Positions 7,048 to 11,941 of a stretch of DNA of 11,941 nt are shown piece by piece (position 1 is the first letter of the stretch; every line of letters starts with the position of its first letter). The stretch lies in IMG/VR virus record IMGVR_UViG_2648501400_000008; one strand, given 5' to 3'. Below the pieces are notes generated by a model. The model had not been told where the DNA came from, made no database searches, and saw only the letters and a program-made list of their open reading frames with translations. Source of the stretch: a virus. Its lineage: Duplodnaviria > Heunggongvirae > Uroviricota > Caudoviricetes. The translations under genes were made by a program, and so were the position numbers.

Positions 7048-7308
7048 ATGCAATCACCATTACGGAATGTGCGTAAGGCGCACGGATTTACTTTGCAGCA
7101 TGTTGCTGCTGGCGTTCAGGTCAATCCAGCGACGCTGAGTCGTATTGAAAGACTGGAACAAATTCCATCTATCGATCTTGCAGAACGTCTGGCCAATTTT
7201 TTTAAGGGTGAAATCAGCGAAATGCAGATTCTTTATCCGGCACGTTTTCAATCTAGCCAAAACCAGAATGGGTTTAAACCACAGGAACAGGAGGTAAGCC
7301 GTGGGTAA
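7048..7308 (+). CDS. Cro-like XRE-family HTH regulator (86 aa)
   Basis: GGAGG ribosome-binding site at 7038-7042, 5 nt before the ATG; HTH segment FTLQHVAAGVQVNPATLSRIERLE; divergent from the cI-like gene across the operator region. Confidence 0.8.
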   Translation: MQSPLRNVRKAHGFTLQHVAAGVQVNPATLSRIERLEQIPSIDLAERLANFFKGEISEMQILYPARFQSSQNQNGFKPQEQEVSRG

Positions 7309-7858
7309 TCATCACTGGAAAGTGGAAAAACAGCCTGAGTGGTACGTGAAAGCTGTCAGAAAAACTATCGCGGCGTTGCCGGGGGGTTACGCTGAAGCTG
7401 CTGAGTGGCTGGATGTAACAGAGAACGCATTATTTAACCGCCTTCGTGCCGATGGCGATCAGATTTTCCCGCTGGGATGGGCAATGATTTTACAACGTGC
7501 TGGTGGCACTCACTTCATTGCCGACGCTGTGGCGCAGTCTGCAAATGGCGTCTTTGTGTCTCTTCCTGACGTCGAGGATGTGGACAATGCCGATATTAAC
7601 CAGCGTTTACTGGAAGTCATTGAACAGATCGGCAGTTATTCAAAACAGATTCGTTCGGCAATCGAAGACGGTGTAGTGGAACCGCATGAGAAGACAGCAA
7701 TTAACGACGAGCTGTACCTCTCAATTTCGAAGCTGCAGGAGCATGCAGCACTTGTCTACAAAATTTTTTGCGTTTCAGAAAGTAATGACGCCCGCGAGTG
7801 TGCAGCTCCGGGCGTCGTGGCGTCGATTGCTTCTGGTTGTGGAGAAACTAACGCATGA
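7301..7858 (+). CDS. Prophage early protein in the cII position (185 aa), YmfL-like by position and length
   Basis: GTG start with an AGGAGG site 6 nt upstream (7289-7294); overlaps the cro stop and is coupled to the next gene by ATGA (7855-7858). No catalytic motif recognised; the e14 YmfL comparison is from memory. Confidence 0.6.
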
Positions 7859-8193
7859 ACAGTTTAACAACACACTACCGTCGCTCGCAACTGATTGCGC
7901 TTCCTGTACCGGGTGGAAAAGCGAAGGTGGAGTATTGCTATGCAGTAAATGTACCAGGTGACAGGGAAATTGTAACCCACAGCTTTGCTGAGTGGGCTGT
8001 GGGGGATTTCAACCGGCAGAAGGAGACAGTCCTTTGCGACAAGTTAACCGCTGGTTCAAAGATCACTACGGAGTGCCCGTCAGAGTCATTCGTTGGGAGC
8101 CGGAAACACAACGGGTTATCTACCTCCGTGAAGGCTATGAGCATGAGTGCTTCAGCCCGCTCGAACAGTTTCGTCGTAAATTCAGGGAAATAG
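7855..8193 (+). CDS. Small prophage protein (112 aa), possibly YmfM-like (SOS-associated cell-division inhibitor family); C-terminal half uncertain
   Basis: ATG overlaps the upstream stop (ATGA). The N-terminal 45 aa look protein-like, but the C-terminal part is Ser-rich and low-complexity and overlaps a better-looking alternative frame (see findings). Confidence 0.45.
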
Positions 8194-8202
8194 AGGTCGG
8201 TC

Positions 8203-9144
8203 ATGAGCACTAAATTAACCGGCTATGTATGGGATGGTTGCGCTGCGTCAGGCATGAAATTATCCAGCGTGGCAATTATGGCCCGCCTGGCTGATTTCAG
8301 TAATGACGAAGGTGTGTGCTGGCCATCAATTGAAACCATTGCCCGCCAGATTGGCGCGGGGATGAGTACCGTCAGAACGGCTATCGCACGGCTGGAAGCA
8401 GAAGGCTGGTTAACGCGTAAGGCGCGTCGCCAGGGTAACCGCAATGCGTCGAATGTTTATCAGCTTAACGTTGCGAAGCTTCAGGCAGCGGCATTTTCTC
8501 AACTGTCAGATTCTGACCCGTCAAAATCTGACGCATCAAAATCTGACCCGTCAAAATTTGATGCGTCGAAATCTGGCAAAAAAGCGGGTTTTCACCCGTC
8601 AGAATCTGGCGGGGATCCGTCAGTAAAATCAAAACATGATCCGTCAGATAAAAAACCTTCTCGTCCGGACGCTTCGCAACCGGACACGCAGACGGCTGAA
8701 CAGGATTTTTTAACTCGCCATCCTGATGCGGTTGTATTCAGCCCTAAAAAGCGCCAGTGGGGAACGCAGGATGATTTGACCTGCGCACAGTGGCTCTGGA
8801 AAAAAATCATTGCCCTGTACGAGCAGGCCGCCGAATGTGACGGCGAGGTGGTTCGTCCCAAAGAACCGAACTGGACAGCCTGGGCAAACGAAATTCGCCT
8901 GATGTGTGTGCAGGATGGTCGTACTCACAAACAAATCTGCGAGATGTACAGCCGCGTCAGCCGCGATCCGTTCTGGTGCCGTAACGTGCTCAGCCCGTCG
9001 AAGCTGCGGGAAAAATGGGATGAGCTTTCCCTGCGCTTATCGCCGTCCATCAGCACATACACAGAAAAACGCGAAGACCCGTATTTCAAATCCAGTTACG
9101 ACAACGTGGACTACAGCCAGATCCCGGCAGGATTCAGGGGGTGA
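8203..9144 (+). CDS. Lambda O-like replication initiator (313 aa)
   Basis: N-terminal winged-HTH-like segment (…CWPSIETIARQIGAGMSTVRTAIARLEAEGWL…), a repeat-rich linker, and a C-terminus (…QWGTQDDLTCAQWLWKKI…NWTAWANEIRLMCVQDGRTHKQICEMYSRVSRDPFWCRNVLSPSKLREKWDEL) that matches the lambda O C-terminal domain as I recall it. GAGG ribosome-binding site 6 nt upstream. Confidence 0.85.
   Translation: MSTKLTGYVWDGCAASGMKLSSVAIMARLADFSNDEGVCWPSIETIARQIGAGMSTVRTAIARLEAEGWLTRKARRQGNRNASNVYQLNVAKLQAAAFSQLSDSDPSKSDASKSDPSKFDASKSGKKAGFHPSESGGDPSVKSKHDPSDKKPSRPDASQPDTQTAEQDFLTRHPDAVVFSPKKRQWGTQDDLTCAQWLWKKIIALYEQAAECDGEVVRPKEPNWTAWANEIRLMCVQDGRTHKQICEMYSRVSRDPFWCRNVLSPSKLREKWDELSLRLSPSISTYTEKREDPYFKSSYDNVDYSQIPAGFRG
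8503..8580. repeat. Tandem about-15-bp direct repeats (candidate replication-origin iterons) inside the O-like gene
   Basis: Consecutive units TCAAAATCTGACGCA / TCAAAATCTGACCCG / TCAAAATTTGATGCG / TCGAAATCTGGCAAA plus a diverged flanking copy, followed by more degenerate copies and an A/T-rich stretch (8620-8657). They encode the SKSD-repeat linker. Confidence 0.5.
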
Positions 9145-9146
9145 GC

Positions 9147-9635
9147 ATGAGTCTTTTGAATGACGTTCAGAAATTCATTGAAGCCCATCCGGGGTGTACT
9201 TCCGGAGACATTGCGGATGCTTTTGCAGGTTACTCACGGCAGCGCGTTCTGCAGTCTGCAAGCAAGTTACGTCAGAGTGGGCGTGTGGCTCACCGTTGTG
9301 AAGGAGATACACGCAGACATTTCCCGCGCCTGACTGAGAGAGCGCAGGAGCCGGAACCACAACCAGTTCGTGAAACCAGACCTGTGCGCAATTTCTATGT
9401 CGGCACTAACGATCCCCGGGTGATTTTGTGCCTGACCCGCCAGGCGGAAGAACTGGAGTCCAGGGGCTTATACCGTCGTGCTGCAACGGTGTGGATGGCG
9501 GCATTCCGTGAAAGCCACTCCCAGCCAGAACGAAACAATTTTCTGGCGCGTCGTGAACGGTGTTTACGGAAAAGCAGTAAGCGGGCTGCATCAGGTGAAG
9601 AGTGGTATCTCTCAGGGAATTACGTGGGGGCTTAA
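9147..9635 (+). CDS. PerC-family-like putative transcriptional regulator (162 aa from ATG 9147)
   Basis: AGGGGG ribosome-binding site 6 nt upstream of the ATG at 9147 (the ORF track uses the GTG at 9141). The C-terminal AEELESRGLYRRAATVWMAAF resembles the PerC/Pch motif as I recall it; the N-terminal part looks like a winged helix. Confidence 0.55.
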   Translation: MSLLNDVQKFIEAHPGCTSGDIADAFAGYSRQRVLQSASKLRQSGRVAHRCEGDTRRHFPRLTERAQEPEPQPVRETRPVRNFYVGTNDPRVILCLTRQAEELESRGLYRRAATVWMAAFRESHSQPERNNFLARRERCLRKSSKRAASGEEWYLSGNYVGA

Positions 9636-10288
9636 TGAGTAATAAATATTGCCAGGCGCTGGTGGAACTGCGGAACAAACCAGCCCATGAACTGAAGGAA
9701 GTGGGCGATCAGTGGCGCACGCCGGACAACATTTTCTGGGGAATTAACACCCTGTTTGGCCCGTTTGTTCTGGATCTGTTTACTGACGGTGATAACGCCA
9801 AATGTGCTGCGTATTACACGGCGGAAGACAACGCGCTGGCGCATGACTGGTCAGAACGTCTTGCGGAGCTTAAAGGTGCTGCCTTTGGTAATCCCCCATA
9901 CAGCCGCGCCAGTCAGCATGAGGGGCAATACATCACCGGCATGCGTTACATCATGAAGCATGCCAGTGCCATGCGTGATAAGGGCGGGCGCTATGTTTTC
10001 CTGATCAAAGCTGCCACCAGCGAAGTTTGGTGGCCGGAAGATGCAGACCATATTGCTTTTATTCGCGGGCGTATTGGTTTTGAACTGCCTGCCTGGTTTA
10101 TCCCGAAGGATGAGAAGCAGGTGCCGACAGGAGCGTTCTTCGCTGGTGCTATTGCTGTTTTCGACAAGACCTGGAAGGGACCGGCAATCAGCTACATCGG
10201 GCGCGATGAACTTGAGGCATGTGGTGAGGCGTTTCTGGCGCAGGTTCGCCAGCAGGCGGAAAAACTGGTCAGGGAGATGGCGGCATGA
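9635..10288 (+). CDS. Phage Dam-like DNA N6-adenine methyltransferase (217 aa from ATG 9635)
   Basis: Catalytic (D/N)PPY motif present as AFGNPPYSR; the start ATG overlaps the upstream stop (TAATG at 9633-9637); the stop overlaps the next start (ATGA). Confidence 0.85.
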   Translation: MSNKYCQALVELRNKPAHELKEVGDQWRTPDNIFWGINTLFGPFVLDLFTDGDNAKCAAYYTAEDNALAHDWSERLAELKGAAFGNPPYSRASQHEGQYITGMRYIMKHASAMRDKGGRYVFLIKAATSEVWWPEDADHIAFIRGRIGFELPAWFIPKDEKQVPTGAFFAGAIAVFDKTWKGPAISYIGRDELEACGEAFLAQVRQQAEKLVREMAA

Positions 10289-10611
10289 CGACGTTAACTC
10301 AATGCCAGCAGCAGGTGCTGGATATGCTGATTTCTTATCAGAAAGAACGTGGCTTCCCGCCAACCAATCAGGAGGTGGCAACCATGCTGGGATACCGTTC
10401 AGTGAATGCAGCGGTGGAACATCTTCGCGCACTGGAGAAAAAAGGCGTCATCACGATAAAGCGTGGCGTGGCCCGGGGTATCACTCTTCATACCGCGGTG
10501 AAGGACGACGACAGCGAGGCGGTCGGGATTATCCGCTCACTGCTTGCCGGTGAGGAAAACGCCAGGCTGCGTGCAACCCACTGGTTACATGAGAGAGGCC
10601 TGAAAGTATGA
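10285..10611 (+). CDS. LexA N-terminal DNA-binding-domain-like protein lacking the S24 peptidase domain (108 aa)
   Basis: LTQCQQQVLDMLISYQKERGFPPTNQEVATMLGYRSVNAAVEHLRALEKKGVITIKRGVARGITL closely parallels the LexA winged-HTH domain (…[55 protein letters not shown]…, recalled); there is no Ser/Lys protease domain. Coupled to flanking genes by ATGA overlaps. Confidence 0.8.
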   Translation: MTTLTQCQQQVLDMLISYQKERGFPPTNQEVATMLGYRSVNAAVEHLRALEKKGVITIKRGVARGITLHTAVKDDDSEAVGIIRSLLAGEENARLRATHWLHERGLKV

Positions 10612-10997
10612 AGCTGATCCTGCCTTTCCCGCCCAGCGTGAACACGTACTGGCGACACCCCAACAAAGGGGCATTTGCTGGTAAGAGCCTGATAAGCGCG
10701 GCGGGGCGAAAATTTCAGAGCGCGGCGTGCGCAGCAATAGTTGAGCAGTTACGTCGTCTGCCAAAACCAACGTCGGCACCTGCTTCAGTGGAGATCGTGT
10801 TGTTTCCTCCGGATAACCGGATCCGCGATCTGGACAACTATAACAAGGCGCTGTTTGACGCCCTGACCCACGCGGGTGTGTGGGAAGACGACAGTCAGGT
10901 GAAAAGAATGCTGGTGGAGTGGGGACCGGTTATCCCGGAAGGGAAGGTCGAGATCACTATCAGTAAGTACGAGAAAACGGCGGGTGCAGCCGCCTGA
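10608..10997 (+). CDS. rusA: RusA Holliday-junction resolvase (129 aa)
   Basis: LPFPPSVNTYWRH … RDLDNYNKALFDALTHAGVWEDDSQV … EITI matches the RusA signature including the catalytic Asp cluster; this is the typical position in the lambdoid nin region. Confidence 0.9.
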   Translation: MKLILPFPPSVNTYWRHPNKGAFAGKSLISAAGRKFQSAACAAIVEQLRRLPKPTSAPASVEIVLFPPDNRIRDLDNYNKALFDALTHAGVWEDDSQVKRMLVEWGPVIPEGKVEITISKYEKTAGAAA

Positions 10998-11016
10998 GCA
11001 AAAGGAGAAACGAAGT

Positions 11017-11826
11017 ATGAATAATCTGATGGTCATTGATGGTATTGAAGTTCGTCGTGATGCTTATGGGCGTTACAGCCTGAACGATCTGCATCGCGCA
11101 GCAGTAGCATCTGGTGCAAATGCCAGAACCAAGGAGCCAGGAAAGTTTCTTTCCAGCCAACAAACTGTTGAACTTGTTCATGAATTGACCAACACCCAGA
11201 ATTTGGGTGTTGACCCGGTGAGTGTGATTCATGGGGGAAATGAACGGGGAACTTATGTCTGCAAGGAACTGGTGTATGCCTATGCAATGTGGATCAGCCC
11301 GCCATTCCATCTGAAGGTGATCCGTACTTTCGACATGGTAACCAGCGCACCGGAAAAATTATCCGGGCAGGCTGCTGACAAGATGCAGGCTGGTGTGATT
11401 CTGCTGGACTTTATGCGTCGGGAATTAAACCTGTCTAACTCATCTGTGCTTGGGGCTTGTCAGAAACTCCAGGAGGCTGTTGGCTTACCGAATCTGGCTC
11501 CGCGCTATGCAATTGATGCTCCTGCCGATGCACCCGATGGCTCAAGTCGCCCTACGCTGTCACTGAGTGCACTGCTGAAGCAGTATGGTATCCGCCTGAC
11601 GGCTAATCAGGCATATCACCAGATGGTGAAGCTGGGGATCGTCGAGCAGCGCGAACGATACAGCCGTACCGCGATTAACAACATCAAAAAATTCTGGTCG
11701 CTGACAGCGAAAGGCTGCATGTTCGGCAAGAACATCACCAGTCCCGCAAATCCGCGCGAGACGCAGCCGCATTTCTTCGAATCCCGATTCCCTGAGCTGT
11801 TAAAGCTGCTCGATACCGTTCATTGA
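11017..11826 (+). CDS. KilA-N domain protein (Roi/antirepressor-like, 269 aa from ATG 11017)
   Basis: AAGGAG ribosome-binding site at 11002-11007, 9 nt before the ATG at 11017. The N-terminus (MNNLMVIDGIEVRRDAYGRYSLNDLHRA … GTYVCKELVYAYAMWISPPFHLKV) is KilA-N-like. Confidence 0.75.
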   Translation: MNNLMVIDGIEVRRDAYGRYSLNDLHRAAVASGANARTKEPGKFLSSQQTVELVHELTNTQNLGVDPVSVIHGGNERGTYVCKELVYAYAMWISPPFHLKVIRTFDMVTSAPEKLSGQAADKMQAGVILLDFMRRELNLSNSSVLGACQKLQEAVGLPNLAPRYAIDAPADAPDGSSRPTLSLSALLKQYGIRLTANQAYHQMVKLGIVEQRERYSRTAINNIKKFWSLTAKGCMFGKNITSPANPRETQPHFFESRFPELLKLLDTVH

Positions 11827-11833
11827 GGTGACC

Positions 11834-11941
11834 GTGAGAGCATTACTGACCCCTGAAATTGCCCCGCGTATGGGGATCGTATTGTTCAGACCCGGTTCAG
11901 AGCTGATGCCCCTGTTTATGCCTGTCTCTTATACACAAATC
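11834..11941 (+). CDS. Partial ORF (5' end only), unknown function, running into a transposon-like end
   Basis: GAGG at 11825-11828 then GTG at 11834; the open frame VRALLTPEIAPRMGIVLFRPGSELMPLFMPVSYTQI continues to the window edge without a stop. Confidence 0.25.
   Translation, partial: MRALLTPEIAPRMGIVLFRPGSELMPLFMPVSYTQI
11922..11941. mobile_element. Tn5/IS50-like terminal inverted repeat (transposon end or library-adapter artefact) at the window edge
   Basis: CTGTCTCTTATACACAAATC matches 17 of 19 positions of both the Tn5 mosaic end (CTGTCTCTTATACACATCT) and the IS50 outside end (CTGACTCTTATACACAAGT), oriented with the element body to the right, beyond the window. Confidence 0.35.

Follow-up and report, generated by a model that had tools for sequence, protein, structure and literature searches.

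In phage lambda the replication initiator O has a partner, P, which binds the C-terminal domain of O and is essential to the phage. Lambdoid modules with an O homologue and no loader are already described in the literature as an unsolved problem: 34 of 314 lambdoid phages encode an O homologue alone, and the replication of these O-only phages is stated not to be understood (Genome Res 2025, PMC12315714). The Eru survey of Stx phages also reports HTH_36 proteins in replication regions that are not of the lambda type, with a mechanism described as unknown.

The second group of systems to be considered consists of the PerC and ANR regulators. Pch proteins activate LEE1 through displacement of H-NS, StpA and Hha from DNA (PMC4764244), and Fukui et al. 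report that H-NS was not co-precipitated with PchA. PchA, PchB and PchC act in LEE1/ler activation and relief from H-NS, whereas PchD and PchE barely activate ler and have a minimal effect on it, so that activity is not uniform within the PerC family; overexpression of PchE lowers csgD and curli expression and raises flagellar expression. Among the ANR proteins, which act by protein contacts, Aar binds AraC-family regulators directly (PMC4983702), and the literature also mentions an action of Aar on H-NS. PchD (89 aa) is encoded in SpLE1 after ibrA/ibrB-like genes and PchE (90 aa) in Sp7, and both consist of the PerC domain only. We note that in Sakai Sp7 (26104-27045 of our locus L177) pchE directly follows a primase gene, a small hypothetical ORF and an SSB gene, and that a head-gene block comes next; with capsid genes of its own, Sp7 resembles a capsid-forming satellite, and it offers a second instance of a PerC-family gene within a replication cluster. 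Only two weak matches to PchE were found among phage genomes by tblastn.

The window analyzed here, by which we mean the whole stretch of 11,941 nucleotides of viral DNA, belongs to an E. coli lambdoid prophage of the SfII/CPS-53 type and takes in its immunity, replication and nin region. From 7000 to 11941 the sequence shares 96.8% identity with Shigella phage SfII, and 95-98% with mEp460, SfIV, several Stx2 phages and phages of many E. coli isolates. The + strand carries, in this order, cro, cII/YmfL, a hypothetical gene, the O-like initiator, yfdN, Dam, a LexA DNA-binding-domain-only gene, RusA and KilA-N, with cI on the opposite strand (Table 1). No promoter- or terminator-like site was found on the + strand between 7825 and 11330, and the block is therefore taken to be one pR-type transcription unit. 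The initial annotation had drawn attention to a 162-aa gene lying between the O-like initiator and a methyltransferase, and both the ORF and its neighbors stand as described. The ORF runs from the ATG at 9147 to the TAA at 9633-9635, with an alternative in-frame GTG start at 9141 that would give 164 aa. The O-like gene stops with TGA at 9142-9144 and the yfdN ATG lies 2 nt further on, while the yfdN stop and the Dam start overlap by 1 nt (TAATG, 9633-9637).

Table 1. Features of the window, with positions counted from its first nucleotide
Feature	Coordinates	Strand	Description or basis
531-aa protein	337-1932	-	PADLOC dCTPase E=2.7e-164; Pfam cytidine/dCMP deaminase domain
Leftward operon: yfdR (HD 5'-deoxynucleotidase), yfdQ (DUF2303), yfdP	3640-4203, 4304-5128, 5194-5742	-	
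Immunity and early region	6258..8193	both	Pfam Peptidase_S24 and HTH, HTH_3, Phage_CP76; NCBIfam YmfL
cI	6258-6950	-	Immunity region
cro	7048-7308	+	Early region
cII/YmfL	7301-7858	+	Early region
Hypothetical gene	7855-8193	+	Early region
O-like replication initiator, 313 aa, without partner loader	8203..9144	+	PHROG 391, HTH_36, lambda O BLASTP
Iteron array (putative origin) inside O-like gene	8505..8650	.	Palindromic units with 15-bp period
O-like C-terminal tail, DNVDYSQIPAGFRG	9100..9141	+	GF[RK][GSTV] tail
yfdN-type gene, 162 aa	9147..9635	+	Winged helix, linker, PerC-type three-helix domain, conserved tail
YfdN winged helix-turn-helix, residues 1-60	9147..9326	+	AlphaFold2 pLDDT ~95
YfdN linker, residues 61-89	9327..9413	+	pLDDT ~60; length and sequence variable across the family
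YfdN PerC/ANR-type three-helix domain, residues 90-143 (A..LE..GLYRRAATVW...RR..C)	9414..9575	+	PF06069, PchE likeness, pLDDT
YfdN disordered tail, residues 144-162, motif WYLSGNYVG(A)	9576..9632	+	Low pLDDT; conserved motif
Phage N6-adenine DNA methyltransferase (Dam)	9635..10288	+	Pfam Dam 9.6e-46; TIGR01712 255.6 bits
LexA DNA-binding-domain-only protein, 108 aa	10285..10611	+	Pfam LexA_DNA_bind 2.9e-19; no S24 peptidase domain
RusA Holliday-junction resolvase	10608..10997	+	Pfam RusA 6.1e-15

The gene is yfdN of the E. coli K-12 prophage CPS-53 (98.8% nucleotide identity), where it is intact in a degraded prophage whose upstream O gene is cut to 122 aa. Among complete E. coli genomes, 2670 of 5426 carry it under the annotation "PerC family transcriptional regulator", and tblastn recovers it in 57 phage records, including SfV, SfII, SfIV, mEp460, ST64B and Stx2a/Stx2c phages; the protein matches PHROG 1324 ("transcriptional activator") end to end (1.3e-78). 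In published work the K-12 gene was deleted merely as a precaution. Both yfdN and its arrangement belong to an already known and well-sampled prophage module.

Two further genes of the window deserve a remark in their own right. The 531-aa protein near the left end is, judged from its domain matches, a prophage-borne dCTP deaminase anti-phage defense gene, and the 108-aa protein with a LexA DNA-binding domain only could be a non-cleavable competitor of LexA at SOS boxes.

The O-like protein belongs to PHROG 391 ('replication initiation O-like', 1.5e-135). Its N-terminal domain is HTH_36 (PF13730), with no assignment to Phage_rep_O (PF04492), the family that lambda O itself matches at 5.7e-36. 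A C-terminal domain of the lambda-O type had been assigned to it in the initial annotation, and a BLASTP comparison with lambda O bears this out (8e-26, 31% identity over 216 columns, residues 70-277), with a well-conserved block at about 175-277. The putative origin within the gene comprises five to six copies of GTCAxAxTCTGAC with a 15-bp period, together with two more distant copies, and iterons thus lie inside the initiator gene here as they do in ori-lambda inside O.

The absence of a P- or DnaC-like gene, also pointed out at the outset, holds for the eight larger ORFs that the window contains beyond the block from O to RusA, in which Pfam detects no P, DnaC or DnaB domain, and for the complete SfII genome, in which none of the three is annotated. 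YfdN itself contains none of the loader domains sought in Pfam (DnaC/IstB AAA+, DciA, DnaD-type, P PF06992), and PerC is the sole family matched at E<=1. Comparison with lambda P gives a BLASTP E value of 0.2 over 8 residues and, at the family level, an hhalign probability of 0.07%, and the AlphaFold2 model has a winged helix and a three-helix bundle with no nucleotide-binding fold. A loader fragment or a divergent P, for which a profile check had been proposed, is rejected on the basis of the Pfam, BLASTP and hhalign results. YfdN is unlikely to be a helicase loader, and has the appearance of an optional regulator-like add-on.

The AlphaFold2 model, built on 34 diverse relatives, has a mean pLDDT of 86.6. 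The winged-helix-like N-terminus proposed from the sequence is recovered in it with high confidence (Table 1), and the helices of the second domain, at residues 90-105, 109-122 and 126-143, have pLDDT values of about 97. The family is real but narrow: a HMMER search of 1.8 billion representative proteins yielded only 99 matches, of which about 30 are full-length two-domain proteins at 25-47% identity. The family alignment retains a winged helix followed by a linker of variable make-up, then the core A..LE..GL.RRAATVW..AF....R....RR..C, and last the C-terminal motif; in the tail G157 and G161 are nearly invariant, and (W)YL[AS]G[NR][YF]VG is kept in most clusters.

A PerC relationship had been proposed from the motif ESRGLYRRAATVWMAAF, which is present at residues 104-120, and profile searches now place YfdN in the PerC family. 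With Pfam PF06069 (PerC), for which the gathering cut-off is 22.6 bits, residues 98-149 reach 36.1 bits (E=7.7e-9), and all 34 of the diverse two-domain relatives match this model at E<=0.01; the family profile aligns with PchE at an hhalign probability of 97.5%, and residues 94-145 of YfdN share 40% identity with residues 1-52 of PchE. The match to YfdN covers only positions 5-56 of the 90 in the PerC model, whereas PchE matches positions 1-89 with 152.8 bits, and YfdN, with 162 aa and an added winged helix, is not a small single-domain protein of about 90 aa. The NCBIfam ANR model NF033650 scores 23.6 bits on residues 96-142 (E=3.4e-5), below its cut-off of 32. In a comparison by eye that allows one residue to be skipped in the loop behind helix 2, the ANR signature positions A10, E14, A22, W26, A29 and R47 and the consensus cysteine C51 line up with YfdN A100, E104, A112, W116, A119, R136 and C139, and the position of ANR W43 is occupied by F132. 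PchD and PchE were considered as O157 orthologues of YfdN and rejected, both being PerC-only proteins of about 90 aa in other elements.

To place the gene among its relatives we collected 170 YfdN-like loci, which form 15 clusters at 70% identity and extend down to 24% identity to the window protein; the scan of genome contigs contributed 6 loci only. An O-like initiator, recognized by its tail, lies directly upstream in 164 of the 165 loci with upstream sequence, and the upstream ORF overlaps the called YfdN-like ORF by 4 nt in 158 of these 165. Placement directly after O extends to all 15 clusters and to the most distant members, while the downstream gene varies. The initial annotation had noted that the gene occupies the loader position and had considered a divergent replication accessory factor; a loader-like role is not supported by two samples of loci centered on O, bearing in mind that many of the viral contigs are defective prophages. 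Among 78 scorable loci with an LLS-type (Phg_2220_C) O protein, 75 pass directly from O to a methyltransferase; among 73 scorable loci with a lambda-type C-terminal domain, 37 do so and 36 have a YfdN-like gene. The stretch between O and the first gene of the nin region may or may not contain a YfdN-like gene, which is an optional insert there. In phage LLS, which forms plaques, the right arm contains no YfdN-like ORF, even when the HMMER filters are switched off, and 716R3 and HannyBb are further O-only phages without YfdN; we note that the K-12 host of LLS carries its own yfdN, which could in principle complement LLS in trans.

The matching N-terminal domain of the LLS O protein, with another C-terminal domain and no YfdN, prompted the idea that YfdN is passed on together with a lambda-type C-terminal domain of O, just as P goes with the O C-terminal domain in lambda. 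This idea was rejected, because YfdN-like genes also follow O proteins of the Phg_2220_C and mEp460 types, because 716R3 and HannyBb have C-terminal domains of the lambda type but no YfdN, and because near-identical O C-terminal domains are paired with different YfdNs: O proteins whose C-terminal domains are 90-99% identical to that of the window are followed by YfdNs of 47%, 65% or 100% identity. Conversely, a single 70% YfdN cluster is found after five O clusters, which represent at least two C-terminal domain types (lambda and mEp460) and four N-terminal/iteron types. As judged by these comparisons there is no co-variation of YfdN with either O domain. The fixed gene order of lambdoid phages is enough to account for YfdN always following O.

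Downstream of the YfdN-like genes (loci L093-L172) there is mostly a DNA methyltransferase, drawn from non-homologous families that include Dam (PF05869), fusions of C5 (PF00145) and D12 (PF02086) domains of 607-761 aa, MT-A70, and PAPS_reduct with D12; in about 20 loci a RusA or LexA-DBD gene takes its place. The slot after O, or after O and a YfdN-like gene, is itself conserved and filled by interchangeable methylases. The large ORFs (591-761 aa) after distant YfdN-like genes were considered as helicases and set aside, being methyltransferase fusions.

A feature that does accompany these initiators throughout is their C-terminal tail. GF[RK][GSTV] occurs in the last 12 residues of 164 of the 165 upstream O-like ORFs, the one exception being an artifact of ORF calling, and all of the loader-less O sequences that we inspected (including L003, L084, L085 and L173-L175) end in ...(V)DYSQIPxGFRG or ...D(T)xIPxGFRG. 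The IPxGFRG tail is independent of the type of C-terminal domain (lambda, Phg_2220_C or mEp460) and of the presence of YfdN; it occurs in the O-only phages LLS, 716R3 and HannyBb, which have no YfdN, and is absent from lambda O, whose partner is P. We regard this peptide as a candidate docking site for some replication factor of the host. The tail of YfdN, with its pattern of a hydrophobic residue, a small residue, two variable positions, an aromatic residue, a variable position and Gly, loosely resembles the O tail IPAGFRG, a likeness that may be either a coincidence or a shared docking motif.

The leftward operon of the window offers a second observation on the host helicase. YfdR contacts DnaA at Phe46, with a moderate inhibitory effect on the interaction of DnaB with DnaA at oriC, and multicopy yfdQRST blocks initiation at oriC (PMC4776307). 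Both SfII and LLS have a gene annotated as deoxyribonucleoside 5'-monophosphate phosphatase at the matching position, and LLS also has yfdP- and yfdQ-family genes. Together with the O tail, this suggests an arrangement in which the O protein would itself recruit host DnaB-DnaC and YfdR would free DnaB from oriC.

Taking these results together, we tentatively regard YfdN as a regulator, accessory and optional, of the rightward early operon in lambdoid prophages of the SfII/SfV/mEp460/ST64B type, and not as a helicase loader; if so, it is probably a DNA-targeted anti-silencer of the PerC/ANR type. Its gene would share a transcript with the O-like initiator once the prophage is induced or a cell infected, and its translation would be coupled to that of the initiator. 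The N-terminal winged helix would anchor the protein to DNA, or possibly to a protein partner, and the PerC/ANR-type domain would provide a protein-contact or anti-silencing module that loosens complexes of the H-NS/StpA/Hha type or contacts regulators, at phage promoters and possibly at those of the host, as has been described for Pch and Aar. Helicase loading at the in-gene origin would be left to host DnaB-DnaC, recruited by the O-like protein itself. That the winged helix binds DNA, that the protein relieves silencing, and where it would act are all inferred from homology.

That the gene strictly follows O, whichever of the 15 clusters it belongs to, counts against this regulator reading to some degree, since a role at the origin would fit it too. 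As a replication accessory factor YfdN might bridge O to host DnaB-DnaC, or clear nucleoid proteins from the iterons and the AT-rich region, and its exact P position, its tight junction with O and the constancy of O upstream while the downstream gene varies are all in keeping with such a role, as are the lack of a loader in the window or in the SfII annotation, the statement in the literature that O-only lambdoid replication is not understood, and the position of pchE in the replication cluster of Sp7. We consider it unlikely. Most of the sampled O-only modules, including that of the viable phage LLS, have no YfdN; the protein co-varies with neither O domain and resembles PerC and not P; the fixed lambdoid gene order already accounts for its placement; and the yfdN copy of Stx2a_WGPS2 (AP012537, the Eru6 reference phage; hits H91/H92) is split by an IS element, a natural sign of dispensability if that phage is inducible. 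The evidence against a replication role is stronger than that for it.

A regulator acting on the host is improbable to a similar degree. According to this explanation, which the initial annotation had raised with virulence regulons in mind, YfdN resets adhesion, motility or virulence regulons in lysogens or cryptic prophages in the manner of PchABC and PchE. It draws on membership in the PerC family, on the repression of csgD and curli and the rise in flagellar expression upon PchE overexpression, on the intact state of yfdN in the degraded CPS-53 although O is truncated there, on its occurrence in about half of complete E. coli genomes, and on an altered glycogen content upon ASKA overexpression of yfdN. 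However, yfdN lies within the early operon that cI represses and lacks a promoter-like site of its own, which sets it apart from a typical moron; PchD and PchE, which have been studied, are PerC-only proteins encoded elsewhere, in SpLE1 and Sp7; and the literature reports no host phenotype for a yfdN deletion.

More doubtful again is the proposal that YfdN proteins are optional boosters of P-independent origin firing, and that the virulence regulators PerC and Pch descend, domesticated and without the winged helix, from this protein of the phage replication module; the winged helix would then tether the protein and the PerC/ANR domain clear H-NS-type nucleoid proteins from the iterons and AT-rich origin, or YfdN would alternatively dock on a host factor also bound by the O tail ...IPxGFRG. 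Least probable of all is a control of the timing or level of expression of the downstream DNA methyltransferase, like that exerted by the C proteins of restriction-modification systems, as the order of O then methylase is identical where YfdN is absent, about 20 loci have RusA or a LexA-DBD gene next instead, and the overlapping genes leave no intergenic operator, even though a methyltransferase, from one or another of several non-homologous families, is usually the next gene.

What the analysis mainly contributes is negative: at the P position of loader-less lambdoids lies a gene that does not appear to be the missing loader and that many of these phages lack. SfII, SfIV and SfV, which convert the serotype of Shigella, belong to the O-only group together with several Stx2 phages, and the question that this group poses is how the host helicase is recruited; the presence of the O-tail peptide (...IPxGFRG) and YfdR in the same phages may make that question easier to test. 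Likewise, the combination of a winged helix with a PerC domain provides a route into the mechanism of the PerC/Pch virulence activators.

Comparison with known systems sets the accessory-regulator reading in context. With lambda P (PF06992) YfdN shares only its gene position, after an initiator with a lambda-O-type C-terminal domain; there is no sequence or profile similarity, the size and fold are different, and YfdN is optional in its type of module. The replication module of LLS is an O-only module that lacks the gene: its O protein has the N-terminal domain seen in the window (79% identical over 168 aa), with iterons of the same type, and the O tail, but a Phg_2220_C rather than a lambda-type C-terminal domain, and no YfdN follows it. 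A parallel for the position of yfdN is given by lambda ren and the first nin genes, which are also non-replication accessory genes lying directly after the replication genes in the pR operon, and in HannyBb the gene after the O-only initiator is annotated as Ren-like (DUF977); Ren and YfdN are nevertheless not homologous, Ren being related to exclusion and not a PerC-type regulator. The free-standing ANR proteins Aar and Rnr have a similar three-helix module of about 50-60 residues, with A, E, A, W, A, R and C positions that seem by eye to match, but are about 60 aa long and act on AraC-family regulons, whereas YfdN is a winged-helix fusion encoded in a phage early operon. Finally, PerC and PchA, B, C, D and E share with YfdN a homologous three-helix core and are all encoded on prophages or prophage-like elements; YfdN differs from the single-domain PchD and PchE in having a winged helix, a linker and a conserved tail of its own, and from the Pch proteins generally in its location in the early operon after O, the pch genes being found elsewhere in the prophage-like element.
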